Positions 49,796 to 63,484 of a stretch of DNA of 64,000 nucleotides are shown here, in pieces. Location of the stretch: assembly GCA_050014915.1 (NCBI GenBank), contig JBEKCK010000001.1:38126-102125 (forward strand), written 5' to 3'. This stretch comes from Acidimicrobiales bacterium. Lineage in GTDB: Bacteria; Actinomycetota; Acidimicrobiia; Acidimicrobiales; RAAP-2. The notes under the pieces were generated by a model. The model was not told the origin of the DNA, did no database searches, and saw nothing but the letters and a program-made list of their open reading frames with translations. The translations under genes were made by a program, and so were the position numbers. Within the stretch, counting starts at the first letter, position 1, and the number at the start of each line of letters is the position of its first letter.

Positions 49796-51160
49796 ATGAT
49801 GGGCGTTCACACCTACGGAAGTAACGCCGTTGACTGGGAGAACCGCGTCGACGTGCCCCGTCTCCGCGAAGAACGACTTGCCAAGTTGCAGGCCGAACTG
49901 GAGCGATCGGACCTCGGCGCGCTCTTGACGTTCGACTTTCACAACATCCGCTACATGACCGGCACGCACATCGGCACCTGGGCGATGGACAAGTTGATCC
50001 GTTTCGCGCTGTTGCCGCGCGGGGGCAAGCCCGTCGTGTGGGACTTCGGCTCGGCCGCGCGACATCACCAGCTGTACAACCCGTGGTTGAGCGGCGTCCA
50101 GATCGGACCCGACGGTACCGAGATTCCCTACGAGGGTGCGCGCGCCGGCATCTCCACGTTGCGCGGGGCGATCCCGCCAGGCGCGGACCGAGCCGGCACC
50201 GTGGCCGAGAAGATCAAAGAGGTGTTGTTGCAGTTCGGACTCCAGAACGAACCGATCGGCGTCGACGTGATCGAGATGCCGGTGCTCGCGGCGTTCGCGA
50301 AGGAGGGGATGACGCTGGTCGACGGCCAGCAGGTCTTCTTGGAGGCGCGCCGCATCAAGACCGGTGACGAGATTTTGCTACTCGCCCATGCCGCTTCGAT
50401 GGTCGACGCCGCGTACGAGGAGCTGTACTCGTTCCTGCGGCCGGGCGTTCGCGAGAACGAGTGCGTCGGACTGGTGAACAAGACACTGTACGACCTGGGG
50501 TCAGAACATGTCGAGGGCGTGAACGCCATCTCGGGCGAACGGTGCTCTCCGCACCCGCATGTCTTCAGTGACCGGCTCATCCGACCGGGCGACCCGGCGT
50601 TCTTCGACATCCTGCACAGCTTCAATGGCTATCGGACCTGCTACTACCGCACGTTCGCGGTGGGCAGCGCGTCGGTCGCCCAGCGTGACGCCTATACGAA
50701 GTGCCGCGAGCTCGTCGACGCCGCAATATCGATCGTGAAGCCGGGCACCACGACGGCCGACGTGGTCTCGTTGTGGCCCAAGGCGACGGAGTTCGGTTTC
50801 GCCGACGAAGAGGCCGCGTTCGGCTTGCAGTACGGCCACGGCATCGGTCTGTCGATCTGGGAACGTCCGATCTTCAGCCGCATGGTCTCGCTCGATCAGC
50901 CCGAAGTGCTCGAAGAAGGCATGGTCTTCGCGCTCGAGACCTACTGGCCGGCGAAAGACGGTTGGTCGGCGGCGCGCATCGAAGAAGAGGTCGTCGTCAC
51001 GGCCTCTGGTTGCGAGATCATCACGAAGTTCCCGGCCGAGGAGCTCTTGGTCGCCGGCCAGCGTTACTTCAGCGCCGGCGGTCCGCTCAACGGCCTTCGA
51101 GAGTCACAGTCGAACCTCAACACCGCCGCCGGTCGTGGAGAGAAGCCGACGGAGCAGTAG
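49796..51160 (+). CDS. M24-fold (creatinase/prolidase-like) protein
   Basis: Creatinase_N-like N-terminal domain plus a pita-bread domain carrying GHGIGLSIWE, FALET and RIEEEVVVT. The second Asp metal ligand reads Cys (see findings). Confidence 0.75.
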   Translation: MMGVHTYGSNAVDWENRVDVPRLREERLAKLQAELERSDLGALLTFDFHNIRYMTGTHIGTWAMDKLIRFALLPRGGKPVVWDFGSAARHHQLYNPWLSGVQIGPDGTEIPYEGARAGISTLRGAIPPGADRAGTVAEKIKEVLLQFGLQNEPIGVDVIEMPVLAAFAKEGMTLVDGQQVFLEARRIKTGDEILLLAHAASMVDAAYEELYSFLRPGVRENECVGLVNKTLYDLGSEHVEGVNAISGERCSPHPHVFSDRLIRPGDPAFFDILHSFNGYRTCYYRTFAVGSASVAQRDAYTKCRELVDAAISIVKPGTTTADVVSLWPKATEFGFADEEAAFGLQYGHGIGLSIWERPIFSRMVSLDQPEVLEEGMVFALETYWPAKDGWSAARIEEEVVVTASGCEIITKFPAEELLVAGQRYFSAGGPLNGLRESQSNLNTAAGRGEKPTEQ

Positions 51161-51173
51161 GCCCCTACGTCGG

Positions 51174-52133
51174 TTACGTCTCTCCGCCAGCGAGGTCGCG
51201 GTAATGCTCGCGCCAGATCAGACGATAGACGCGGGTCATTCGTGGTATCGAACGCAGCCCGGGGATGAAAGGTATCAGCGCGAGTCCCAGTGTCAGGACC
51301 ATCATGATGGCCCAGACGAGTATGTCACCGTTACCGCTCGTATTCATGGGCGCCACTTGGTACCAGAATGTGTAGAGCCAGAGCCACGCTTGACCGGGGT
51401 AGTTCCCGGTCTCGTTCATCATGCCCCACTGCTCACCCGTGAGGTGCTGCTTTTGGGCGATATTGGCCATGTACGACCCGTCGGCCAAGAAGAGCAACGG
51501 CAGCGTGTAGTCGGTCGTGTAGAAACCGTTCTGCGTCACGAGTGCTTGGTCGAGGGCACCGGTACGGGCCATCTGCAAGAGGTCCGACATCATCAACGGC
51601 ACGGGACCGGCGTTCGTCGCGTTCACCACGAGGGCGCCGTTGACGATCTTCGTGTGCTTCGCCGCGCTCGTGTAGTTGTTGACCCAGCCGGTTCGCGTCG
51701 AGGCCGACGCGTGGGACCACTGCTTCAAGTCCGTCGACAGCCCGGGCTGGCCGGGCAGTGACTTCAACGGGTCGACCACGAAGTCCTTCACGGTGTTGAT
51801 GGGGATTCGCACACCGACCCATTTGGCCAGGGTGAGCGGCCCCAGTTGTTGACCGGTGGACGCCTTGTTGTACGGCGCGCCGTACTGCGCGGTGCCCGAC
51901 GTGCCGTTCAGTTCACTCAGAGCAGTGGCGGCGAAGTCCATGGGATCGCTGTTGGACCATCCCTTGATGGTGAGCGCCGGTTCATCGGGTGAACCGAAGA
52001 CCACGGCGAGCAGCACCGTCAACACGGACACCACGACGAGCGCGATGACACCTTCTTTGATGATGTCGTAGGGGCTGTGACCGCCCTTCCATTCCGGCGC
52101 GTCGACGTCGGGTCGAAATGCCTTCTTCGTCAT
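51174..52133 (-). CDS. membrane protein resembling cytochrome b6f subunit IV / cytochrome b C-terminal region, with a large extracytoplasmic insertion
   Basis: The ATG overlaps the cytochrome b stop (ATGA at 52130-52133). N-terminal TM helix (VIALVVVSVLTVLLAVVFG), a soluble segment of about 200 aa without Cys, then YPGQAWLWLYTFWYQVAP and a TM helix ILVWAIMMVLTLGLALIPFIPGL. That last part resembles the PEWY / helix F region. Confidence 0.5.
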   Translation of the reverse strand: MTKKAFRPDVDAPEWKGGHSPYDIIKEGVIALVVVSVLTVLLAVVFGSPDEPALTIKGWSNSDPMDFAATALSELNGTSGTAQYGAPYNKASTGQQLGPLTLAKWVGVRIPINTVKDFVVDPLKSLPGQPGLSTDLKQWSHASASTRTGWVNNYTSAAKHTKIVNGALVVNATNAGPVPLMMSDLLQMARTGALDQALVTQNGFYTTDYTLPLLFLADGSYMANIAQKQHLTGEQWGMMNETGNYPGQAWLWLYTFWYQVAPMNTSGNGDILVWAIMMVLTLGLALIPFIPGLRSIPRMTRVYRLIWREHYRDLAGGET

Positions 52134-52756
52134 TGCGCCACCTGTGTGCTCTGCTCAAACGGTGGCACGACACCCTTCACACGAACGAGGAGCACGTGCA
52201 AGGCGGTCAAGACCACTGCCGCAATCGGCAGGAGGACGATGTGCCACATCAACATCTGGCCGACGTTCAAGACGTTCCAATAGGCCCCGCCGCCGGTGGC
52301 GTTGATGCCATCCTTCGCCTGAGTGGAGATCCACTGGGAGTCGAAATTGGTCTGGCTGAGATAGCCGGTGAAGGCCGTGGCGATGGATACGACGAACGTC
52401 ACGACGCCCGTCACCCACGTGAGTCCGCGACCGCCGCGCCAGGCCGCCATGAAGAACTTGCCCCACAGGTGTATGACCATGGCGAAGAAGAAGATCTCCA
52501 CGCTCCAGAGGTGCAGGGAGTTCACGAAGTGACCGACGTAGGAGCCGTGCCACCACTGGGGTCCGCGAATCGCGAGGAGGCACCCGGTGGCGATGACGAC
52601 GACGAGAGAGGCGAGGGTCGCGACGCCAAAGACGTAGATCCACGATGAGACGTACGTTGGCTGCGTGTCAGGTAGCAACTTCTCCGGGGGCAGTTTGCCG
52701 GCGGCGCGTCGGCGAAGACGCGTCGTCCACTGGCGGTCAATCTCAGTCGTGCTCAT
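52130..52756 (-). CDS. cytochrome b, N-terminal (b6-type) domain protein
   Basis: 208 codons starting at ATG 52756 (MSTTEIDRQW); the track ORF extends to 53098. Heme ligand pairs are H82/H96 (13 residues between) and H172/H187 (14 between). Motif FTGYLSQTNFDSQW. Confidence 0.8.
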   Translation of the reverse strand: MSTTEIDRQWTTRLRRRAAGKLPPEKLLPDTQPTYVSSWIYVFGVATLASLVVVIATGCLLAIRGPQWWHGSYVGHFVNSLHLWSVEIFFFAMVIHLWGKFFMAAWRGGRGLTWVTGVVTFVVSIATAFTGYLSQTNFDSQWISTQAKDGINATGGGAYWNVLNVGQMLMWHIVLLPIAAVVLTALHVLLVRVKGVVPPFEQSTQVAQ

Positions 52757-52935
52757 CGGTTCTCCCTTCGGCGCCGTCGACCGGGAAATGGCGCGAAGAG
52801 CGCCACCAAGAAGGTCACGATCATCAAGACGATGACCACCAGGTTGGCGACGCTGATCAGGAAGATATGCCAGTGCAGATAGTGGCCGAGCGTGTTCAGC
52901 GGAAATATGGCCGCGAACACCAAAAAATGAGACAT
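52753..52935 (-). CDS. small hydrophobic protein (60 aa) with His-rich loop
   Basis: ATG 52935 (MSHFLVF...) is preceded by GGGGAGGGAAG. Its stop overlaps the cytochrome b start (ATGA at 52753-52756). Sequence GHYLHWH followed by a long TM helix. Confidence 0.5.
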   Translation of the reverse strand: MSHFLVFAAIFPLNTLGHYLHWHIFLISVANLVVIVLMIVTFLVALFAPFPGRRRRRENR

Positions 52936-53182
52936 CTTCCCTCCCCGAAATGCCTGAATCAAGTCTCGCGGGTGACGCTTTAAAGCCACTAGGGGACAAG
53001 GTCCTATCTCCGACTCTAAGGCGCTCGGTCAAGTCAGTGCAATTCCACCGAGCCGGACTCGCCGTCTCGTTGGCCGCGTAACTTCTAACTCGGAACATCT
53101 ACCCGCGAGTATTCGGTCCGCGGACTGAAGGTGAACCTCCTCCCGCGCGCCAACGTGAGCGTCATGACATAGGTTTTGTTGG

Positions 53183-53676: not shown

Positions 53677-54618
53677 GTGACCTACCTCACGCACCACTGG
53701 GGCTATCCGGTGCTCGCGTTGGTCGCCCTGCTCGTGGTGGCGGTGCACGAACGGGGCCTTCGCGCCCTCAATGCCCGTTCCACCATCGCCCACGCCCGAG
53801 CGCGACGGCAGCGCATGTGGTTGGCCTACGCGGGCATCGCTGTGTTGACCTTGAGCGTGGTCTCGCCGCTGCAGTACTGGTCGATGGAGTACTTCTGGGT
53901 GCACATGATCCAGCACGTCACGGTCATGCTCGCCGCGCCGGCGTTGTACGTGGCCGGGGCGCCGGCCGTGCCCCTGGTCTTCGCGCTGCCCGTCGCGACG
54001 CGTCGACGACTCCTTCGTCGGGTGTTCCTTCGACCCGGGCGTCCCCTGCTGCGACGGATTGGCGCGGTCGTGTTCTCACCGCTCTTCGCCATCGTCTTCT
54101 TCAACGTGGTCATGGTCGTGTGGATGATCCCGAGCGTCTTCAATCCGGTGATGGGTGACCCGGGACTGCACATCAGCTTGATGCTGACCAGCTTCTTCGT
54201 CTCGGGGCTCTTGTTCTGGGCGCAGTTCATCCCGTCGCGTCCATGGCGTCCGACACTCTCGCCCTTCGCCCGCGTCGGCGCACTGCTCGCCACCAACGTC
54301 GTGATGACCATCGTCGCCATGTCGCTGAGTTTCCTGGCGTCGGGACCTTTCTACGACATCGGGAACTCGATGCTCGGTATGGCCCATATGTCCTCGATGG
54401 TGCCCACCACGTTGAACCCATTCGCGGACCAACAGATCGGCGCCGCGATCCTGTGGGTGTGCGGCGACTTCTGGTGCTACCCGGCCCTGGTGATGGCGCT
54501 ACGCCTGGCGACCAAGAACGACACGAACTCCAGCGCCATGGATCACGTGCTGCGGGGACGACGCTCGATGACCGTCGAGGAGTTCCGAGGGATCAGTCAG
54601 GACGAGACCGTCACCTAA
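53677..54618 (+). CDS. ctaG: cytochrome c oxidase assembly factor CtaG (Caa3_CtaG family)
   Basis: Multi-TM protein with YFWVHMIQHVTVMLAAPALYVAG and the C-terminal DQQIGAAILWVCGD, both family-typical. GTG start. Confidence 0.75.
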   Translation: MTYLTHHWGYPVLALVALLVVAVHERGLRALNARSTIAHARARRQRMWLAYAGIAVLTLSVVSPLQYWSMEYFWVHMIQHVTVMLAAPALYVAGAPAVPLVFALPVATRRRLLRRVFLRPGRPLLRRIGAVVFSPLFAIVFFNVVMVVWMIPSVFNPVMGDPGLHISLMLTSFFVSGLLFWAQFIPSRPWRPTLSPFARVGALLATNVVMTIVAMSLSFLASGPFYDIGNSMLGMAHMSSMVPTTLNPFADQQIGAAILWVCGDFWCYPALVMALRLATKNDTNSSAMDHVLRGRRSMTVEEFRGISQDETVT

Positions 54619-55532
54619 CTGGCGTCGCCCGCCACGGTGGGCGCCTCGTCGATCATCGGGATGAGGTAGCCGAAGAACGCCACCGACCCGCCGAGGAACA
54701 TCAGTGCCATGCCCAGCAGTCGTAGCGGGTGGTCGACGCACAGTATGCCGCCGAGAGCGCCCACGACGACACCGACCAGACCACTGACGGCCGCGATTCG
54801 ATCGACTCGACGGCCCGGCGCGCGAGTGAACACGTAGAGCACGACGGCGAGCGCGCCGACGCCCAGCAGACCCCCGAGGAGCGCGTGGAGGACATAGATC
54901 GCCTCGCCGCGGTGCGACAGCCAACCGTCGGGTCGATTGAACGGCACGTACAACATGCCAAAGAGACCGGCGGCGAACTCGACGCACACGCCGATCATCA
55001 GTGACAGCCACACCACGCGCGCAACCGGGATGGACGCGTCCCCGTCGGACGTCACCGCGCGGTTCGACCGCACCGGTACCGTCGCGTACACGGCTCCCCG
55101 GTCGGTTACAGGCGCGGCGAACACCAAGAGGTTGTAGGTGATCAGGGCGACCGCGAGGTGCATGATCATCAGAAAGACCACGCCGCGCGTCGGCTCGTGC
55201 TTGAGCAAGAGCCAGCCGTCTGGCACCCACAGCACCAACATGACGACGACCGCGGTGCGGAAGAAGGCACGGCGGGGGGGATCGAGGGTTCGCGTGACGA
55301 CGTACCACGCCGTGCCCGCGCCGACGACGCCGACGGCCGTGAGCGTGCCGTAGTCCGAGAGTCGAAAGTGCGAATAGTGCTGGAGTGAGGGATCGAAGGC
55401 CGTGGCCAGCCACACGAGCCCGGCGTTGACGGCGATCGAGGCGACCGCGGCCAGCACCGTGACCACCGCGACGCGGGGCCACGGTGGCAACGCGCGCACC
55501 GTCATTGTCGGTGACGCCGGTTCAGTCGTCAT
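54615..55532 (-). CDS. integral membrane protein of unknown function (8 predicted TM helices)
   Basis: 305-aa hydrophobic ORF. The alternative-frame ORF 54499..55482 is Arg-rich shadow. Its start overlaps the upstream 132-aa ORF by 11 nt. Confidence 0.6.
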   Translation of the reverse strand: MTTEPASPTMTVRALPPWPRVAVVTVLAAVASIAVNAGLVWLATAFDPSLQHYSHFRLSDYGTLTAVGVVGAGTAWYVVTRTLDPPRRAFFRTAVVVMLVLWVPDGWLLLKHEPTRGVVFLMIMHLAVALITYNLLVFAAPVTDRGAVYATVPVRSNRAVTSDGDASIPVARVVWLSLMIGVCVEFAAGLFGMLYVPFNRPDGWLSHRGEAIYVLHALLGGLLGVGALAVVLYVFTRAPGRRVDRIAAVSGLVGVVVGALGGILCVDHPLRLLGMALMFLGGSVAFFGYLIPMIDEAPTVAGDAS

Positions 55533-55920
55533 CGCGCTTCATGGCGTCGCTGGGCTGGCCACCGGCCTCTTCAGCCCGACGGTTCGTCTCAAGTTTGGCC
55601 ACCTCTTCTTGCCAGGCCCGGAGCATTCCCTCGTATTCGGGCGCGACGGTGGGCTTCTCGCGCGGGCGTCGGATCGTGAAGCCGGGGTGCAGCAGTTTCC
55701 ACCACATATATATGGCGAAGATTCCGAGCAGCGGCCATTCGAAGACGTAGGCCCAACTGAGTTCGTTTCCCCCTTCGGCGCGATGAAGTTCGAAGATGAA
55801 CGCGGCGGCGCAGAGGGCGAGTCCCACGACCAGGGTGAAGTGCGTCTTCATCGCTGACGCGCTCGTGAGCGAAACTCTCTTCGGCGACCCTTCCTCGGGC
55901 ACCTTGTCGGTGTCGCTCAC
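55522..55920 (-). CDS. small membrane protein of unknown function (2 TM)
   Basis: GTG start preceded by AGGACG. Two hydrophobic helices (FTLVVGLALCAAAFIF, WPLLGIFAIYMWWKLL) and a charged C-terminal tail. Confidence 0.55.
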   Translation of the reverse strand: MSDTDKVPEEGSPKRVSLTSASAMKTHFTLVVGLALCAAAFIFELHRAEGGNELSWAYVFEWPLLGIFAIYMWWKLLHPGFTIRRPREKPTVAPEYEGMLRAWQEEVAKLETNRRAEEAGGQPSDAMKRDDD

Positions 55921-55985
55921 CGTCCTACTGTACCCGCGTGTTTTTGCCGCCCTCGCTCGACGCGGGGCCGTGATACGGCGCCCCT

Positions 55986-56885
55986 ATGGTAAAAATGACC
56001 CGAGCGATGGGCAGCGAGATGACGACCGGCAATGGGGAGACCTCGCGTGAACCCTGCGAGCTGAACGAAGAAGAGCGCGCTTCGATCTTCGCTGCCGCCA
56101 ACGCGCCGCGGGACCGGCTCGGCAAGTTACGCGCCGGGCGCGTGACGGTGCCCACCAAGTTCATCGTGTGGACCCTCGTCGCGATCGCGGTCTTGGGACT
56201 CGGAGGTGAAGTGGCGCAGCACTTCTTCGAGACCTACGGGAAGGCGTCGCCCCCGGTGAAGACCCACGTGCTCAAGGGCACGCCCACGACGAACCCCAAC
56301 GAGCCGTCGCTGATCTCGCTGCAAGTGTTCATCGGGCTCAAGGACATCGGTGAAGAAGTGGCCCCCAAGTTCACGCTGCACACCCAGAGCGGCCATCGGT
56401 GGCGACTCGGTTCGCACAAGGGTCACGTCGTCGTCCTCACTTTCTATAACTCGATCTGCAACGACATCTGCCCGGTACTCGGCGCCGAGATACGAATCGC
56501 GTCGCACGAGCTCGGCGCTGATGCCGACATGGTCGACTTCGTCATCGTCAACACCGATCCCAACTCGACCAAGATCTCGGCGAAAAGTCCCGCCCTCAGC
56601 GTGCCGGGGCTCGGCGATGATCAGTCGGTCACCTTCTTGTCGGGATCGGTTACCACGCTCAACCGCGTCTGGTCCGCGTACGGGGTCCGGATCGACGTGG
56701 GGGCGAAGCGCGATCAGGTGTCACACAACAACGTGCTGTACTTCATCGGACCCAACGGCAATCTCTCGGCCTACGCCGCGCCGTTCGGCACCGAAAGCGC
56801 GACCGGTCTGTACTCGCTCGACGCCCCGAGTCTGCACACCTACGCCCGAGCCATCGCCGAGACCGCCGATAGTCTTGTCCGGTGA
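55986..56885 (+). CDS. SCO1/SenC family copper chaperone (thioredoxin fold)
   Basis: TM anchor, then VVVLTFYNSICNDICP (CxxxC) and a downstream conserved His in VSHNNVLYFIGPNG. Confidence 0.8.
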   Translation: MVKMTRAMGSEMTTGNGETSREPCELNEEERASIFAAANAPRDRLGKLRAGRVTVPTKFIVWTLVAIAVLGLGGEVAQHFFETYGKASPPVKTHVLKGTPTTNPNEPSLISLQVFIGLKDIGEEVAPKFTLHTQSGHRWRLGSHKGHVVVLTFYNSICNDICPVLGAEIRIASHELGADADMVDFVIVNTDPNSTKISAKSPALSVPGLGDDQSVTFLSGSVTTLNRVWSAYGVRIDVGAKRDQVSHNNVLYFIGPNGNLSAYAAPFGTESATGLYSLDAPSLHTYARAIAETADSLVR

Positions 56886-57559
56886 CTGACGACCTCTCCG
56901 GTTTCGAGACGGTTCCCTTCGATCCGGCGTCGATGCCGACCTCGTCGCTGGGCATCACGAAGGCGGTGTGGTACCGGCGACCGTGGGTCCTCGCGACGTT
57001 GGCCCTGCTCGTGGTCGTGGCGATCTCGGTGGTGATCGACCTTCCCCGTCCGCTCACTCGAGCCCAGGACGTGGCCTCACAGAACGCGTCGATAAAGGAG
57101 ATCAACGCCGATCTCGCCGACTGCGCCTTCGCGGTGAACGAGTCGTTCCACATCTACAACCTTGACGTCGCCGGCACCTTGACCCCAGGGGACAGGTCCC
57201 AGGCGCCGACGCTTCTCACGGGCGACGAGACCGCGTGTTCGTTCGCGAGTGAGCCGGTCTACGACCTCACGAACAACCTCCAGGTCCAGGACACGAAGGC
57301 CGGACGACACATCGACCGCATGTTGAGCGTCGTGGAGCGTTGGATAACCGGCTACGCCCTGGCCTCGATCCGCGACATCCAGTACCTGTTCGAACATCCC
57401 GGCGACGCGGCGACGATTCGTCACCTTGCCACCGCGGAGAGCCAACTATCCACCGGTCGCGCCAAGGCGCTCAGCGACGAGGCGCTCGCCGAGCAGGTGC
57501 TCGGTCAGCGACTGTACGCCCTGAAGATCCCCACGCTGCCGCACCTGAGAGGAACTTAA
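56882..57559 (+). CDS. membrane-anchored protein of unknown function, translationally coupled to SCO
   Basis: GTG 56882 overlaps the SCO TGA (GTGA). Single TM helix (WVLATLALLVVVAISVVI) followed by a soluble domain of about 165 aa with two Cys. Confidence 0.55.
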   Translation: MTDDLSGFETVPFDPASMPTSSLGITKAVWYRRPWVLATLALLVVVAISVVIDLPRPLTRAQDVASQNASIKEINADLADCAFAVNESFHIYNLDVAGTLTPGDRSQAPTLLTGDETACSFASEPVYDLTNNLQVQDTKAGRHIDRMLSVVERWITGYALASIRDIQYLFEHPGDAATIRHLATAESQLSTGRAKALSDEALAEQVLGQRLYALKIPTLPHLRGT

Positions 57560-57605
57560 GTCGTGCCCGGTCGCGCGCGCCGTGGTCAAGTGACTTCGCG
57601 ATAGC

Positions 57606-58094
57606 GTGCCGCATATGAGACAGTCAGACCCCGATCGCGTGCACCCGACCATGGACGCCAACTCGGTCATTCGGTGGCTCATCGTCGCCATCGAGTACGC
57701 CATCGTGGCGAGCCTGATGCTGGTCGCCAGCATCGTCTTGGTGCGGTCGCTGGTCAACTTCTTGAGCCACTGGAACGAGTTCCCCCAGTCGGTCGTGTCG
57801 GCTATCGACGGCATCCTCGTCGTGATCATCCTGCTCGATATCGCCCACACCGTCTTCGGCCACCTACGGGCCTCGGTCTTTCCGGTGCGGCCCTTCCTCA
57901 TCATCGGGATTCTGGCCGGCGTTCGGGACATCTTGAGCTCCTCGGCCCACCTCGCCCTCAGTGGCACCCTCTCGTCGGTCGACTTTCGCGACACCATGAT
58001 CTCCCTGGGGGTCGGGGTCGGGGTCGTGGTGATCCTCTTGCTGGGACTGCTCATCCTGCGCTTCGCCGCCCTGCCCGGGGATGAGGACCGATAG
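57606..58094 (+). CDS. PsiE-like (phosphate-starvation-inducible E family) membrane protein
   Basis: Four-TM architecture with IDGILVVIILLDIAHTV ... FPVRPFLIIGILAGVRDIL, resembling PsiE as I recall it. Confidence 0.55.
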   Translation: MPHMRQSDPDRVHPTMDANSVIRWLIVAIEYAIVASLMLVASIVLVRSLVNFLSHWNEFPQSVVSAIDGILVVIILLDIAHTVFGHLRASVFPVRPFLIIGILAGVRDILSSSAHLALSGTLSSVDFRDTMISLGVGVGVVVILLLGLLILRFAALPGDEDR

Positions 58095-58128
58095 GGCGCC
58101 AAAACCTCGCCGACCGCTTGAGCGGCGA

Positions 58129-58950
58129 CTACGGATTCGTCCCGAAGAACCCCCGCGAGCGGTCGCGGCGCACGAGCTGGTAGAGCTCCTCGTCGGGATC
58201 GTCTTCGGACTGCAGCCATCGATTGAGGTTGGCGAAGATGATCGGCATGAACGCGCTCGCCGAGATGAACCACATGAGACCGGTCGTGACCTGTTGGTCG
58301 ATCGCGAGCGAGAACAGCCGCCCTGACACGTGGCGGAAGCCCGAGTACCACGAGTTCGGGGACATGGCCATGAGATAGGCGATCACCCACACCGTCCACA
58401 TGGCGATCGCCGAGACGCCGATGCGATACGGGCGCGGCGTGGTCGGTCGAAACGGCGCCGACTCCACCAACTCGAGCCAGAGGAACGACCCACCGAGGAC
58501 CAGCGTCAGCGATTCGATGACCGAGATCCACGGATGACGCACCAGGGCGTCCACCACGGGCGCCGATCGCCAGAGGATCGACTGACCCACGAAGACGATG
58601 AGGAGAAGGACGACGCGACGGTACCCGCTGTTCGACGTCCGGCCCTGCGCCCAGCGATCGAGGAGACGGGGGTTCGCCGGCGAGATCCGCCGACCGTCGG
58701 CGTCGACGCTGAATGGCTCGTTCGCGGTCAACTTCAACCACCGCCACGGGCCACCCACCACCAGCAGCGCTGGAACCACGACCGCGAAAAGGCAGAACTG
58801 CGTCGCCTGGACGAACTCGTACTCGCCGGTCAACGTGAGCACGGGCGGCGTCAACGCCACCAACCACAGGGCGAAAGCGCTACAGGCGAGGAGATCGTGG
58901 AAGAGGACGCGCTGGGGCGAGAGCTGCGGACGAATCGTCTCCGGGGTCAC
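58129..58950 (-). CDS. Caa3_CtaG-family paralog lacking the HxxxH motif
   Basis: Aligns by eye block-for-block with 53677-54618: EFVQATQFCLFAVVVPALLVVGGP vs YFWVHMIQHVTVMLAAPALYVAGAP, and DQQVTTGLMWFISA vs DQQIGAAILWVCGD. GTG start. Confidence 0.65.
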   Translation of the reverse strand: MTPETIRPQLSPQRVLFHDLLACSAFALWLVALTPPVLTLTGEYEFVQATQFCLFAVVVPALLVVGGPWRWLKLTANEPFSVDADGRRISPANPRLLDRWAQGRTSNSGYRRVVLLLIVFVGQSILWRSAPVVDALVRHPWISVIESLTLVLGGSFLWLELVESAPFRPTTPRPYRIGVSAIAMWTVWVIAYLMAMSPNSWYSGFRHVSGRLFSLAIDQQVTTGLMWFISASAFMPIIFANLNRWLQSEDDPDEELYQLVRRDRSRGFFGTNP

Positions 58951-59133: not shown

Positions 59134-59790
59134 TCACAGCAGGTAAAACATCGCGAACAACAGCGTGCTGGCGAGGGCCACGAAGCCCAGGAAGTACGTC
59201 ATCGACGCCACGTTCGCGCGGAACGCCTGCGCCGAGGGATGCGTCGAGAGTTGGAGGTCGACGCCACTCAACTCCTTCTTCATTCGGTGTGAACGCGCGA
59301 CCGTGGTCTCGAGCCAATAGGCCACGATGAGGATCGTGATGATGTTGATCACCGAGTAGCCGATGAACGTCGAGGCGTAGCCGCTCGAACCGGGGTAGAA
59401 CGGCACCGCGGTGAACTCATAGATCTGCAGGAAGAGGGCGAGCAGCGCGGACACGACCCCGACCCAGATCGCCGTCTGCCACTCGAACACGCTGCCCTTG
59501 CGCAGACGGACCTGTCCGAAGGTGGCCATCAGCGCACACAGCAGCGTCAAGGAGTAGATGGACCAGCCGTAGGCGGTCGGGGCGGTGATGTGATCCGGTC
59601 GCCACAGCAGTCCATTGTTGCTGGAGCGAAGGTAGAAGTAGCTGAAGGCGAGTGACGCGAGCAAGAACGTGTACATACCGATGAACAGTCGGCCGCCGCT
59701 CCATATCGCGCCGATATGCGCGCGCAGTTCGAACTCGCGCTCTTCGGGGGTATCACTCATCTTGGATTCGTCCTTGATCATGTCCGTCAT
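59134..59790 (-). CDS. ctaE: cytochrome c oxidase subunit III
   Basis: 218 codons from ATG 59790 (MTDMIKD), 4 nt after the ctaD stop. Five-TM heme-copper-oxidase subunit III-like sequence immediately downstream of ctaD. Confidence 0.75.
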   Translation of the reverse strand: MTDMIKDESKMSDTPEEREFELRAHIGAIWSGGRLFIGMYTFLLASLAFSYFYLRSSNNGLLWRPDHITAPTAYGWSIYSLTLLCALMATFGQVRLRKGSVFEWQTAIWVGVVSALLALFLQIYEFTAVPFYPGSSGYASTFIGYSVINIITILIVAYWLETTVARSHRMKKELSGVDLQLSTHPSAQAFRANVASMTYFLGFVALASTLLFAMFYLL

Positions 59791-59794
59791 GTCG

Positions 59795-61756
59795 TTACTC
59801 TCTACTCGCCGGGTCGGGACTGGGGGCAACGGAACTGCTGGCGTGCACCGGTTGTGGTACCCCGAAGTCGGCCAGGTCCGGTGCACCAACTTCGCTGTAG
59901 TGATACGGGTCGGTCATGATGACCGGGATCCGCTCGAAGTTGTAGGGCGGAATCGGCGACGCGGTCTGCCATTCGAGGCCGAGGGAGTCCCATGGGTTGG
60001 CCGGGGACTTCTCCGGGGCGATGAACTGGGACCACATCAGGTTGGCCACGAAGATGAGGAACGAGGCCCCCAGGCAGAACGCCGCGATCGACGAGAAGTC
60101 GTTCAGGGTCTGGAGGTTCCGGGCGTAGGTGAAGACACGGCGCGGTTGACCGAGGAGCCCGATGACGAACATCGGGAAGAACGTCAGGTTGAAGAAGACG
60201 AACATGGTCCAGAAGTGCCAGAGTCCCAACTTCTTGTTCATCTTGCGCCCGGTCATCTTCGGCAGCCAGAAGTACAGCCCGGCGAAGAACGCGAAGATGA
60301 GTCCGCCCATGATCGTGTAATGGAAGTGCGAGAGCACGAAGAAGCCCCCGTGCACCGTCACGTTCACCGGGACGTCGGACAGGAACACGCCGGAGATCCC
60401 GCCGATGAGGAAGTTGAAGTACACGGCCATGCAGAACAACATGGGCACTTCATATCTGATCTTCGCTTTATACAACGTGCCCATTCCCACCAAGAAGATG
60501 AACCCGGTCGGGATCGAGATCAACTCGGTCGTGAGCATGAAGAGCGGACGCATGTCCGGGTCGATGCCGCTCTGGAAGAGGTGGTGCTGCCAGACGAAGA
60601 ACGACAGCAGGGCCACGCCGATCATCCCGGCCGCGGCGATGCGGTACGCGAAGAGGGGCTTTCGACAGAAGACCGGGATGATCTCGCCGACGATCCCGAA
60701 TCCCGGGAGCGCCATTATGTAGACCTCGGGATGGCCGAAGAACCAGAACAGGTTCTCCCACAGGTACGAGCTCCCGCCGTGCTCGGTGACGTAGAACGCC
60801 GTCTGCGCGGTCTTATCGAGCAGCCCGAAGAGACCGGCCGCCAAGAGCACCGGCGACGCCAGGGTTAGTAGCGCCGCCGTGGCGATGATGGACCAGACGA
60901 AGATCGGCACCCGGCTCCAGGTCATCCCGGGCGCGCGGTAGTTGATGATCGTCACCGCCAGGTTGAAGCCGGCCGTCATCATTCCGATGCTGATGACGGC
61001 GAAGCCGAAGAGATAGGACACCATGCCTGGGCCGGCCTGTGTCTGGAGGGGCGCGTAGCCCGTCCAGCCCGTCGGGAACCCCCCGTAGATCAACGCCGAA
61101 AAGATGACGAAGTAGCCCGCGACGAAGGTCCAGAGACTAAAGGCTTCGATGCGCGGGAACGCCATGCGACGCGAACCGATCATCAGGGGGACGAAGTAGT
61201 TTCCGAGCGGTCCCACCACGATCGACGACGCCATCATCATCATGATCGTGCCGTGCTCACTCACGATCTTGATGTAGGTGTCGGCGCTGAAGACGTGCAC
61301 CGTCGGATTCAACAGCTCGGTGCGGATGGCCATCGCCAGTAGTCCGCCCGTGAAGAAGAAGACCAGTACCCCGACCACGTACTGGATGCCGACGACCTTG
61401 TGGTCGAGGTTGAAGCGGAAGTACCGCGTCCAACCGTGGTACTCGACCTCACCCTTGGCCTCACGGCCGAAGATCTTGGCGATCGGATAGTTGAGAGCAC
61501 CGATGCCGAGCAGCCAACCGATGACCATGCCCAGTAGTGCCAGGAGGTCGGCGAGCGAACTCTGGCCGCTGTTCGCGATGTAGGGGTACGCGCCACCTAG
61601 GAAGTTGCCGAACCAGTGTCCCAGTATGTAACCGAGGAAACCGCAGATAACTGCGGTGCCGATGTGCTGGCTCAACCACCCGCCCTGGCCCTTGCGCGGT
61701 TGGATGAATGCCGGAGGCTCCGGGGCCTCGACGTCCGCTTCAACGCTGGTGGTCAT
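59795..61756 (-). CDS. ctaD: cytochrome c oxidase subunit I
   Basis: Hallmarks DHKVVGIQY, WFFGHPEVYIMALPGFG, HHLF and VLSHFHYT. GGAG RBS 8 nt upstream of ATG 61756. Unusually long N-terminus. Confidence 0.95.
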   Translation of the reverse strand: MTTSVEADVEAPEPPAFIQPRKGQGGWLSQHIGTAVICGFLGYILGHWFGNFLGGAYPYIANSGQSSLADLLALLGMVIGWLLGIGALNYPIAKIFGREAKGEVEYHGWTRYFRFNLDHKVVGIQYVVGVLVFFFTGGLLAMAIRTELLNPTVHVFSADTYIKIVSEHGTIMMMMASSIVVGPLGNYFVPLMIGSRRMAFPRIEAFSLWTFVAGYFVIFSALIYGGFPTGWTGYAPLQTQAGPGMVSYLFGFAVISIGMMTAGFNLAVTIINYRAPGMTWSRVPIFVWSIIATAALLTLASPVLLAAGLFGLLDKTAQTAFYVTEHGGSSYLWENLFWFFGHPEVYIMALPGFGIVGEIIPVFCRKPLFAYRIAAAGMIGVALLSFFVWQHHLFQSGIDPDMRPLFMLTTELISIPTGFIFLVGMGTLYKAKIRYEVPMLFCMAVYFNFLIGGISGVFLSDVPVNVTVHGGFFVLSHFHYTIMGGLIFAFFAGLYFWLPKMTGRKMNKKLGLWHFWTMFVFFNLTFFPMFVIGLLGQPRRVFTYARNLQTLNDFSSIAAFCLGASFLIFVANLMWSQFIAPEKSPANPWDSLGLEWQTASPIPPYNFERIPVIMTDPYHYSEVGAPDLADFGVPQPVHASSSVAPSPDPASRE

Positions 61757-61814
61757 AGCGCGATCTCCGTTTCTGTGCTCCGGTACTTCAACGTTGAGGT
61801 TCGACCGTTATTCG

Positions 61815-62804
61815 TCATGAGGGCTGCTTCGATCCGTAGATCTCGACCGTGCTGTAGGGCGTCACGTTGCCGTCGGGGTAGTAGCCGCCCGCCGCGCCGT
61901 TGGCGTCCGGTACGTAAGTCCACGCGAAGGGTGGCAGGTCCTTGGTGTTCGCGGCGTTCTTGGACTCGGTCGACGTCGCCCAGGTCATGAACGCCGACTC
62001 CGAGATCACCTTGCCCGGGTTGAACATCGCCCCGTGCCAGATGCCGCACAACTCACTGCAACGAACCTCGAAGTTGCCGAGTTGCTCGGTCTTGGTGAAG
62101 GCGACGTTGTTCTCAAGGGGGTTGGCGTCGGCCTTGACCTCGAGTTGGTAGGCCCAGAAACTGTGGATGACGTCGAGCGAGGTCACGTTGAACGCGATCT
62201 CGGTGTCGTTGGGGAGGATCAGGTCCGGCGACTCGAAGCCTCCGAAGGTCGGGTACCGATAGGTGAACTTCCACTGTTGGGCGATGACCTGGACGGGGAG
62301 TACCTCGTTGCTATTGGGTGACCACGTCCCGGTGCCCGCGATGGCGTCCGTCTCGGCCTTCACGGCCCCGGCGGGCTGGAGGATCGGGTTCGGTCCTTCA
62401 CCACTGCCCGAACCGTTACCGACGTAGAGCTCGATGGTGCCGTATATCGCGAGGAACAGCACCACCACCGTGGTGATCACGATCCAGGAGACCTCGGTCC
62501 TCTTGTTGCCGGCCGCGATCGGTCCGCCCACCGACTCGGGCATGTCCTTGCGCCTCGAGTTCCACATGATCGCGGCGTAGAGCAACCACTCAAACACGCC
62601 GATCATGACGGGCAGTGCGATCACCATAAGGACGTTGAAGTCCAATTGGTTGTCCTTCGCTGAGGTGGTCATGCGCCCCGGAGGAACGTGCGGGCCCACC
62701 GCGAACCAGAACACGAGGTCGAGGACCACCGAGAGGATGATCCAAATGATGACGATGCGGCGAAAGTGATTCTCTTCGGTTGCGACTGCGTTCTCTGTCG
62801 ACAT
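61815..62804 (-). CDS. ctaC: cytochrome c oxidase subunit II (CuA subunit, no fused cytochrome c)
   Basis: CuA ligands HSFW ... CSELCGIWHGAM. Start at ATG 62804 (MSTENAV), 2 nt after the upstream TAA; the track ORF extends to 62903. Confidence 0.9.
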   Translation of the reverse strand: MSTENAVATEENHFRRIVIIWIILSVVLDLVFWFAVGPHVPPGRMTTSAKDNQLDFNVLMVIALPVMIGVFEWLLYAAIMWNSRRKDMPESVGGPIAAGNKRTEVSWIVITTVVVLFLAIYGTIELYVGNGSGSGEGPNPILQPAGAVKAETDAIAGTGTWSPNSNEVLPVQVIAQQWKFTYRYPTFGGFESPDLILPNDTEIAFNVTSLDVIHSFWAYQLEVKADANPLENNVAFTKTEQLGNFEVRCSELCGIWHGAMFNPGKVISESAFMTWATSTESKNAANTKDLPPFAWTYVPDANGAAGGYYPDGNVTPYSTVEIYGSKQPS

Positions 62805-62806
62805 GA

Positions 62807-63484
62807 TTAGCTCACCACGTCCAGTTCGCCACCCATGTAGTTCTGTGTCGACATCGGCCCCCCATTTCCGAATAAGTAACCGAGGCCACACGGCACGAAG
62901 CACTGCCAGTTGTAACTACCCGGACCAGGTGTTTTGAAGCTGAACTTCTCGATGTTGTGCGGCGAGTTGAAGTGGCACGGTGCCACGGCGCAGGGGTTGC
63001 CCGTCACGCCTACCAGGGGGACGCTGAGGTTGAGCGTCGGGATAGCGAACGTGTGTCCCACGCCTCCGCCGGTGTACGAGTCGTACTGACTGAAGCTCTT
63101 GCCATTGAGCGTTGCGGTCCCACCAATGGTCCCCTGCACTTGACCCCACTCCTGATTGCGCAAAGGGCTGCCACTGTCGTACTGGTACACGGTCATGTCG
63201 ATCACCGTGTGGGCCGGAAGTTCAAACGTCGTGGAGTGCTGCCACTTCCCGGTCGTCGGGTTCTTAACGAGGTACGAAACCCACGTGGGGTGGGCGCCGA
63301 AACCAATCGATCCGACCGTCTGGACCGTCAGGTCCACCGGTTGGCCCGACGCATGGTCACTCGTGAAGTTGACGACGCCGCCGGGAACGCCGGGATTCAA
63401 AAGTCCGGCCACGGCCCACACCACCAGACCAACGACAACCAGGAACAGTCCGAAAACCGTCGCCAGTCTCCCCCCCTTGGTCAT
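62807..63484 (-). CDS. membrane-anchored CoxB-like cupredoxin-domain protein with degenerate CuA site
   Basis: Strong RBS AAGGAG. N-terminal TM anchor. HTFAIPTLNL ... YNWQCFVPCGLGY ... M parallels the CtaC blocks HSFWAYQLEV ... CSELCGIWH..M. First gene of the cta operon. Confidence 0.6.
   Translation of the reverse strand: MTKGGRLATVFGLFLVVVGLVVWAVAGLLNPGVPGGVVNFTSDHASGQPVDLTVQTVGSIGFGAHPTWVSYLVKNPTTGKWQHSTTFELPAHTVIDMTVYQYDSGSPLRNQEWGQVQGTIGGTATLNGKSFSQYDSYTGGGVGHTFAIPTLNLSVPLVGVTGNPCAVAPCHFNSPHNIEKFSFKTPGPGSYNWQCFVPCGLGYLFGNGGPMSTQNYMGGELDVVS

Follow-up and report, generated by a model that had tools for sequence, protein, structure and literature searches.

A 64,000-nucleotide stretch of genome from an Acidimicrobiales bacterium (GenBank assembly GCA_050014915.1, contig JBEKCK010000001.1, positions 38,126 to 102,125 of the forward strand; hereafter, the window) carries three chained minus-strand genes that encode a small membrane protein, a di-haem cytochrome b, and a larger membrane protein. 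This trio is probably a widespread, Rieske-less offshoot of the cytochrome b6/subunit IV core and an uncharacterised type of electron-transfer complex. An earlier note, made from the sequence of the window alone, had singled out the same genes as a split b6-type cytochrome b module with no Rieske or cytochrome c partner. New here are the assignment of the 319-residue protein as subunit IV, the fusions found in Ktedonobacteraceae, the recognition of the trio as a self-contained unit, and the recurrence of ctaA and ctaB beside it.

A di-haem cytochrome b with a divergent subunit IV

The small subunit gene (52753..52935, minus strand) starts at the ATG at 52935 and encodes 60 residues with one transmembrane helix. 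It is followed by the b6-type di-haem cytochrome b gene (52130..52756, minus strand; ATG start), whose 208-residue product has four transmembrane helices (A to D), and by the subunit IV-like gene (51174..52133, minus strand; ATG start), whose 319-residue product has two, so that hydropathy gives the trio 1 + 4 + 2 = 7 helices. Re-reading the sequence upheld the three open reading frames of the earlier note and both of its ATGA junctions, one joining the small gene stop to the cytochrome b start (52753..52756, minus strand) and the other joining the cytochrome b stop to the subunit IV-like start (52130..52133, minus strand). Among the 70 related loci in which all three genes were called, these four-nucleotide overlaps are kept in 56 and 63 loci, respectively; the chaining is therefore not due to chance. 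Shine-Dalgarno-like purine runs (GGGGAGGGAAG for the small gene, AAGGGAGAA, and AGGTGG) lie 5-9 nucleotides before all three ATGs. The mechanical list of open reading frames offered an alternative GTG start at 52989, which would make the small protein 78 residues long; we favor the 60-residue version because its homologues have 58-61 residues and its Shine-Dalgarno sequence is strong. Neither the 60-residue nor the 319-residue protein contains a cysteine, and a scan for promoters and terminators returned nothing useful.

The 208-residue protein matches two Pfam models above their cut-offs, Cytochrom_B_N_2 (PF13631; 2e-13, 51 bits, cut-off 27) and Cytochrome_B (PF00033; 2e-7, 31.4 bits, cut-off 27.2), and its nearest solved structures are cytochrome b6 chains (1q90_B, 1e-8), ahead of actinobacterial QcrB. 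Its histidines are found at residues 70, 76, 82, 96, 172, and 187, which includes the bis-haem pattern proposed earlier (H82-X13-H96 and H172-X14-H187), and FTGYLSQTNFDSQW, named along with that pattern, is found at residues 129-142. The codons of the four ligands (H82, 52511-52513; H96, 52469-52471; H172, 52241-52243; H187, 52196-52198; minus strand) span 52196..52513; these positions are computed, and the alignment shows the ligands to be invariant in 55 of 55 sequences, including fused forms from Chloroflexota. The X14 spacing in helix D and the length of the protein fit cytochrome b6 (about 215 residues). These features identify the product as a di-haem cytochrome b of the b6 type that retains both of its bis-histidine haem sites intact. 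It stands well outside the named families: the cytochrome b6 model that covers PetB and Bacillus QcrB (NF002990) gives 51.2 bits against a cut-off of 325, the actinobacterial QcrB model (NF050120) gives 33.3 bits against 500, and the best NCBIfam match, ExtP (NF040969; 9.7e-15), gives 54.9 bits against an equivalog cut-off of 290. The haem-ci cysteine is absent, with V in place of the C of the b6 CxGG motif ("YVFGV" opposite "YCLGG").

The 319-residue protein, which the earlier note called a membrane gene and nothing further, is indeed a membrane protein; we now identify it as a divergent subunit IV, the equivalent of the C-terminal half of cytochrome b, on the basis of gene fusions, colinearity with PetD, Foldseek matches, and topology. 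The description of the cytochrome b as split therefore holds in a stronger sense than originally meant. A profile search of 1.84 billion representative proteins returned 1,035 clusters at 50% identity. In one 554-residue protein (P0247), the cytochrome b domain is followed by the subunit IV-like domain in a single polypeptide, and in a 639-residue triple fusion (P0245) the small protein is joined to them in-frame; a homologue of the small gene also precedes the fused gene of Ktedonobacteria. A follow-up search found more than 120 clusters of fused forms of 547-573 residues, and the named ones all come from Ktedonobacteraceae or Chloroflexota.

Sequence searches with the 319-residue protein gave no match in Pfam, NCBIfam, or the PDB. 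In particular, PF00032 (Cytochrom_B_C) matched neither this protein nor any of 31 diverse family members in a Pfam scan at E ≤ 1, and the protein has two transmembrane helices, compared with the three (E, F, and G) of PetD. A profile of the family was compared by hhalign with five PetD sequences verified against the PDB. The score was 25.1 (P = 0.0056), compared with 15.7 for reversed PetD and a mean of 14.8 (standard deviation 2.7, maximum 21.4) for 60 block shuffles. The aligned elements follow the same order, with "PYDIIKEG-helix-GSPDEP" opposite the PetD "WPNDLLY-helix E-GEPADP" and "...LYTFWYQ...IPFIPGL" opposite "...LPEWYLYPVFQ...LVPFIEN". The hhalign register sets FWYQ against PEWY; a shift of one residue pairs W257-Y258 with the W-Y of PEWY, and for this reason we take TFWY to be the equivalent of the Qo motif. 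The distance from the tyrosine to the downstream proline is also equal (+30/33 in the 319-residue family, +32 in PetD). The protein can thus be divided into helix E (residues ~28-46), an ef-loop domain of ~190 residues, TFWY (residues 255-258), helix F (residues ~271-289), and a basic, amphipathic C-terminal tail that is predicted to be cytoplasmic; helix G is absent.

Structure prediction was partly informative. The AlphaFold2 model of the 319-residue protein, built on a shallow alignment, is unusable (predicted local distance difference test score, pLDDT, 43), and that of the fused homologue, with a mean pLDDT of 56, was used only coarsely. When the latter was submitted to Foldseek, the top 14 matches were all full-length cytochromes b aligned over 439-531 columns; because the TM-scores were low (0.2-0.3), we relied only on the identity and span of the matches. 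A PDB profile search with the 319-residue family gave chance matches only (CDK7, E about 1), and a weak match to an MGH1-like glycoside hydrolase in 3 of 31 members was likewise taken as chance. One metagenomic homologue (P0248, 575 residues) carries a charged, repeat-rich C-terminal extension of ~230 residues on the cytoplasmic side.

The 60-residue protein has no sequence match in Pfam, NCBIfam, or the PDB. Its homologues share the motif L(N/D)xxG(H/R)Y(I/L)HW...IS(V)AN...PFPGRR, in which the conserved G(H/R)YxHW lies immediately outside the helix. The core of that helix occupies residues 32-50 and the protein ends in RRRRR-ENR; by the positive-inside rule, the C-terminus is predicted to be cytoplasmic, and the N-terminus, with "GHYLHWH", is therefore predicted to be on the outer face. 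The triple fusion P0245 agrees with this orientation. Overall, the small subunit is predicted to run out-to-in, helices A to D in-out-in-out-in, helix E in-to-out, and helix F out-to-in, with the tail in the cytoplasm, and this topology agrees across the split, double-fused, and triple-fused forms. We considered whether the small subunit might be a relocated helix G and ruled this out, as it is predicted to run N-out to C-in, the reverse of helix G.

Conservation of the unit and remodelling of its outer face

The nearest homologues, at about 85% identity, are found in Acidimicrobiales metagenome-assembled genomes (MAGs). A one-genome-per-species collection yielded at least 595 confirmed matches, mostly from Acidimicrobiales, and the best 80 of them all belong to Acidimicrobiales-type MAGs; no homologue was found in a plasmid collection. 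Genes in the related loci were called with a codon log-odds caller and then clustered. Among 83 non-redundant sources (82 loci and the window), the subunit IV-like gene was present in 78, the small gene in 76, and the cytochrome b gene in 74. The trio is inherited as a unit while its neighbours change, in Acidimicrobiales, other Actinomycetota, and Ktedonobacteria. Identity of 70-90% across many species, together with the invariant haem ligands, indicates very strong purifying selection. Source annotations name both the small and the 319-residue proteins "hypothetical protein."

The classical Qo signatures are gone from the aligned sequences, but the residues that replace them are equally conserved. 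Where PetD has PEWY, the window protein has TFWY and the family as a whole has (T/A/S)(F/M/L)(W/L)Y-Q with an invariant Y258; the homologous region is present, and it lacks both the Pro271 and the acidic residue 272 of the PxWY-type motif. On the cytochrome b side, the b6 sequence "TGYSLPWDQVGYW" corresponds to "TGYLSQTNFDSQW," 12 residues of the b6 cd loop have no counterpart, and the b6 "LPWDQ" (signature LPW(D/G)Q) is replaced by a conserved "LSQTNFDSQW."

The largest change is a family-specific extracytoplasmic insertion in the subunit IV-like protein (residues ~53-245; 51399..51977, minus strand). It sits between the end of helix E ("GSPDEP") and the equivalent of the Qo motif, where PetD has 12 residues, and the alignments retain the motifs ELxGTSxxAxYGxPYN, GPVP, and QWGMMNETGxYPGQxWLW within it. 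A part of it (P0247 residues 330-420) is predicted at pLDDT 76-90. From the predicted topology and the colinearity with PetD, this large conserved domain is inserted exactly where the Rieske head docks in bc1 and b6f complexes.

Further conserved residues are placed on the same side. H70 and H76 of the cytochrome b ("WWH...GH" in the AB loop) are invariant in 55 of 55 sequences from Acidimicrobiales and Ktedonobacteria and are retained in two further lineages, but they are absent from the most distant clade (L092). Considered together with the small-subunit histidine, they occur in Acidimicrobiales, Ktedonobacteria, and related clades, and are absent in L092 and partly absent in L094.

Gene neighbourhoods

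The earlier note had seen neither a Rieske protein nor a CxxCH protein in the window, and both observations hold. No Rieske motif (CxH...CxxH) occurs in any stop-to-stop frame of at least 60 residues in the six frames of the window, and its only two CxxCH motifs fall in frames overlapped by larger open reading frames on the opposite strand or in another frame, so that neither lies in a credible gene. It had also allowed that homologous trios might stand beside such genes, in which case this copy would be a rearranged qcr; our survey of 87 related loci and the window found none that do. Among the 1,703 genes within ±10 kb of those loci and in the whole window, the Rieske motif was found in none, and CxxCH was found in only four unrelated proteins, which are sporadic and do not recur. 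Contexts from further lineages (Ktedonobacteria, an actinobacterial-type contig, the distant clade, and others) contain no Rieske or cytochrome c gene either. The two partners that define Rieske/cytochrome b complexes are thus both missing from the regions searched. Similarly, there is no qcrA or qcrC near the trio, whose cytochrome b is not the long, unsplit QcrB of a qcrCAB-type operon, and no Rieske or multihaem neighbour of the kind seen in ext clusters.

A single neighbourhood recurs. In 33 of 80 loci, the genes are arranged as redoxin(-) ctaB(-) | ctaA(+) small b IV(+), and in 28 of the 80 ctaA ends 81-304 nucleotides upstream of the trio on the same strand. The earlier placement of the trio at the edge of a cytochrome oxidase and copper-assembly region is true of the window, but only 2-3 loci share this arrangement, and the neighbour seen repeatedly is ctaA/ctaB. 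In another subgroup, of ten Acidimicrobiales species (L055, L058-L061, L064, L065, L068, L072, L082), a class-I S-adenosylmethionine-dependent methyltransferase, recognised by motifs only, is encoded on the same strand ~100-150 nucleotides before the small gene. In the remaining loci, the trio is surrounded by housekeeping genes. An M24/creatinase-like peptidase gene adjoins the trio in the window (49796-51160, plus strand) and in L005-L009 (family f45); it is often accompanied by a chromate-transporter-like gene (f46), which we regard as local synteny with no evident functional link.

Elsewhere the contexts are different. In Ktedonobacteria (L088, L089), the small gene overlaps the fused gene, and the neighbours encode HSP20, Usp, ferritin, and ECF sigma factors. 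An actinobacterial-type contig has Usp, an F420H2-dependent quinone reductase, and a faint nitroreductase match beside the trio. Taken over L088, L089, and L090 (a triple fusion), the neighbours comprise HSP20, Usp, ferritin, ECF sigma, F420H2-dependent quinone reductase, YceI, and the faint nitroreductase match. These stress- and dormancy-type neighbours of the fused forms hint at stress-regulated expression outside Acidimicrobiales. Other lineages have genes for amino-acid metabolism or sulfur relay beside the trio. In the distant clade, the gene order (L092, 1126-3810) is cytochrome b, which lacks H70 and H76, the IV-like protein, a 73-residue transmembrane protein, and a 279-residue protein with two "EARH" motifs that resembles di-iron carboxylate proteins; a GerE-type response regulator and three DUF2249 genes adjoin them.

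The oxidase region of the window has several features of its own. Between the trio and the oxidase genes lies a copper and assembly island (53677-58950) with two CtaG (Caa3_CtaG) paralogues on opposite strands, SCO1/SenC, a DUF6069 membrane protein, a PsiE-like protein, and a pentapeptide-repeat protein in which we read an N-terminal lipoprotein-like signal. It is followed by an A-type haem-copper oxidase operon (59134-62903, minus strand). Its COX2 keeps the CuA ligands intact (HSFW...CSELCGIWHGAM) and lacks a cytochrome c domain, and the ATG at 62804 is more likely to be its true start than the GTG at 62903. COX1 has 653 residues, with an N-terminal extension of ~100 residues before the Pfam COX1 domain (residues 122-560). 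The gene overlapping its end is COX3-like by our reading of the sequence, with no Pfam match. Finally, a 225-residue open reading frame (62807-63484, minus strand) ends 2 nucleotides before the COX2 ATG. It has an N-terminal transmembrane helix, an outer domain with "CAVAPCH" and "WQCFVPCGLGYLFGNGGPMSTQNYM," and no Pfam match; a possible role is to carry copper or electrons for the oxidase encoded beside it.

Relation to known complexes and possible function

Neither Pfam, NCBIfam, and the PDB nor the literature searched yielded a characterised complex family to which the trio belongs, and no description of it was found in searches for publications on Acidimicrobiia cytochrome b and Rieske proteins, or on Rieske-less or orphan b6 in Actinobacteria. 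Like PetB and PetD of the b6f complex, the trio has a four-helix di-haem subunit with X13 and X14 spacings, encoded directly upstream of a separate subunit IV-type protein; helix E, the Qo-motif region, and helix F of the latter are colinear with those of PetD at equal spacing, and the total of seven transmembrane helices equals that of b6 plus subunit IV. On the other hand, the trio has no Rieske protein, cytochrome f or c, haem-ci cysteine, or helix G; it has TFWY for PEWY, LSQTNFDSQW for LPWDQ, and the ~190-residue ef-loop insertion; its seventh helix comes from a separate upstream gene and runs in the opposite orientation; and its score (51 vs 325 bits) lies far under the b6 family cut-off. 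The other split form is the Bacillus-type QcrB/QcrC menaquinol:cytochrome c reductase. The actinobacterial QcrB of the bcc-aa3 system (Mycobacterium, Corynebacterium) comes from the same phylum, has a homologous N-terminal domain, and provides the top Foldseek matches of the fused homologue, but it is a single long polypeptide, not split, and its gene accompanies those for QcrA (Rieske) and QcrC (di-haem c).

The earlier note had contrasted the trio with the single long QcrB usual in Actinomycetota. This contrast is less apt than it seemed, because Ilumatobacter, a member of Acidimicrobiia, has a canonical paired split cytochrome b (PMC4122944, Kao and Hunte). In that study, split cytochromes b were paired by adjacent N- and C-terminal hidden Markov model (HMM) matches, and 45 unpaired N-terminal sequences were left aside (PMC4122944); as its partner is invisible to the C-terminal HMM, the trio family would be expected to fall among those 45. 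Ktedonobacter racemifer has a split, haem-ci-type Rieske/cytochrome b complex (PMC3509893, Baymann et al.), in whose cytochrome b the haem-ci cysteine is present, whereas the fused form of the trio is Cys-less. The presence of canonical complexes in related cultured genera of both host classes argues that the module is probably an additional paralogue. Dibrova et al. (2017) described other cytochrome b clades of "obscure function," among them cyanobacterial subfamily K and clade G' (PMC5600118). Members of subfamily K are also short b6-like paralogues without CxGG that exist in addition to a canonical complex; however, they have lost one haem-ligand histidine and usually have no subunit IV of their own (PMC5600118), whereas members of the trio family retain all four histidines and always come with a subunit IV-like and a small subunit of their own. 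ExtP (GSU2932-type, from the Geobacter ext cluster), the best NCBIfam match, is a small b6-like cytochrome b as well, but its gene adjoins those for a Rieske protein and several multihaem c-type cytochromes (PMC2825233).

We give slightly better than even chances to the reading that the trio forms a Rieske-independent, quinone-linked transmembrane b-type complex in which the haem pair is a wire to an outer-face site and no bifurcated Q-cycle operates. The three proteins would make up one self-contained, seven-helix membrane complex derived from the cytochrome b6/subunit IV core, and the Rieske iron-sulfur protein and c-type cytochrome would have been lost from it or never have been there. The two haems would link the (mena)quinone pool, reached at a retained b6-like pocket on the cytoplasmic side, across the membrane with a remodelled outer-face site to which the cd loop, the ef-loop domain, and the small subunit all contribute. 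Single electrons would be exchanged between quinone/quinol and a reactant on the outer face that has no gene nearby, and without a bifurcated Q-cycle the mode of action would be like that of stand-alone di-haem membrane cytochromes, not that of complex III. The interaction with quinol is one that we infer. In one clade, a respiratory role is suggested by how often the trio directly follows ctaA; in other lineages, the stress-gene neighbours suggest a stress-linked role.

Several points weigh against this reading. A Rieske protein and a cytochrome c may be encoded elsewhere in the genome, as the search covered the window and ±10 kb around the related loci. With PEWY and PWGQ gone, the outer side might not bind quinol at all. 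In sequence, the 319-residue protein resembles subunit IV weakly (hhalign probability 6.5%, no match to PF00032), so that this homology rests largely on the fusions and colinearity, and the two structure predictions both have low confidence (mean pLDDT 43 and 56). Finally, no partner gene is consistently found near the trio, which makes any outer-face reactant a guess.

A bolder proposal, to which we assign only a minor chance, is that the trio represents a new class of respiratory or redox enzyme, in which a b6/IV core has exchanged the high-potential Rieske/cytochrome c branch for a catalytic or cofactor site of its own on the outer face. H70/H76, the N-terminal histidines of the small subunit, and the "QWGMMNETGxYPGQxWLW" segment of the ef-loop domain would be the elements of this site, which could carry a third haem or a metal. 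By itself, the complex could then connect the quinone pool with haem A synthase or with a reactant that is ubiquitous at the outer face, such as oxygen species. Since H70/H76 and the small-subunit histidine are absent in L092 and partly absent in L094, such a third-cofactor site has a low probability and would not be family-wide.

The alternative that survives best, although we still consider it unlikely, is that the trio is the core of an ordinary, complex III-like Rieske/cytochrome b complex whose Rieske protein and cytochrome c act in trans, so that a normal or modified Q-cycle feeds the CuA oxidase of the window. The b6-type fold, the four haem ligands, and the subunit IV-like partner are all those of such a complex, ctaA/ctaB adjoin the trio in a third of loci, and the window COX2, with its intact CuA site, needs an electron donor. 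It is also known that Qo motifs vary widely (e.g., APWY, PPWF, and GPWF; PMC4122944) and that Rieske genes are not always found beside cytochrome b (PMC5600118). However, the Rieske motif is absent from 87 related loci and the window, across several lineages; both hallmark Qo elements are gone and the ~190-residue insertion occupies the face where Rieske would dock; helix G is absent; canonical complexes have been published for related cultured genera; and the contexts beyond one Acidimicrobiales clade are unrelated to respiration.

It is more doubtful that the trio assists haem A synthesis or oxidase biogenesis as an accessory redox module, passing electrons between the quinone pool and CtaA, the haem A synthase whose physiological redox partner has, to our knowledge, not been established in bacteria. 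The position of ctaA shortly upstream on the same strand, with ctaB and redoxin divergent from it, and the proximity of CtaG, SCO1, and COX genes in the window and 2-3 relatives would fit such a role. Yet more than half of the loci and all non-Acidimicrobiales contexts examined have no oxidase-biogenesis neighbour, and adjacency inside one clade can be inherited synteny. We consider it just as improbable that the trio is a protective redox protein, induced by stress or dormancy, that oxidises superoxide or other reactive species on the outer face and delivers the electrons to quinone. The E. coli cytochrome b561 CybB is reported to act in this way. The self-sufficiency of a module without a partner gene is compatible with such a function, as are the neighbours in other lineages: Usp, HSP20, ferritin, and ECF sigma factors; Usp again with the F420H2-dependent quinone reductase and the hint of a nitroreductase; and, in the distant locus, the GerE-type regulator, DUF2249 genes, and di-iron-like protein. 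On the other side, these neighbours are heterogeneous and few loci were sampled, the Acidimicrobiales neighbours are housekeeping or haem A genes, and the trio has no sequence relationship to cytochrome b561. Least probable by far is a decayed bc complex remnant without redox function: the canonical Qo motifs and helix G are gone, but the conservation data contradict decay, with 70-90% identity over many species, invariant haem ligands, conserved translational coupling, and occurrence in two phyla with independent fusions.

The field treats bc1/b6f-type cytochrome b as inseparable from the Rieske protein, hence the term "Rieske/cytochrome b complexes." In the trio, strong selection has preserved the cytochrome b/subunit IV core with its haem sites intact, even as the Qo pocket and the face where Rieske docks were rebuilt, and its carriers number hundreds of species among bacteria that are abundant in soil and peat (Acidimicrobiales, Ktedonobacteria). 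Because two of the three proteins have no Pfam or NCBIfam model and bear the label hypothetical, current metabolic reconstructions overlook the module or wrongly count it as complex III. If the trio works alone, it would reveal uses of the ancient cytochrome b scaffold outside the Q-cycle and an unrecognised branch of the respiratory chain in these little-cultured groups. It would also bear on the debate about whether small cytochromes b served first as membrane anchors or wires for other redox modules.

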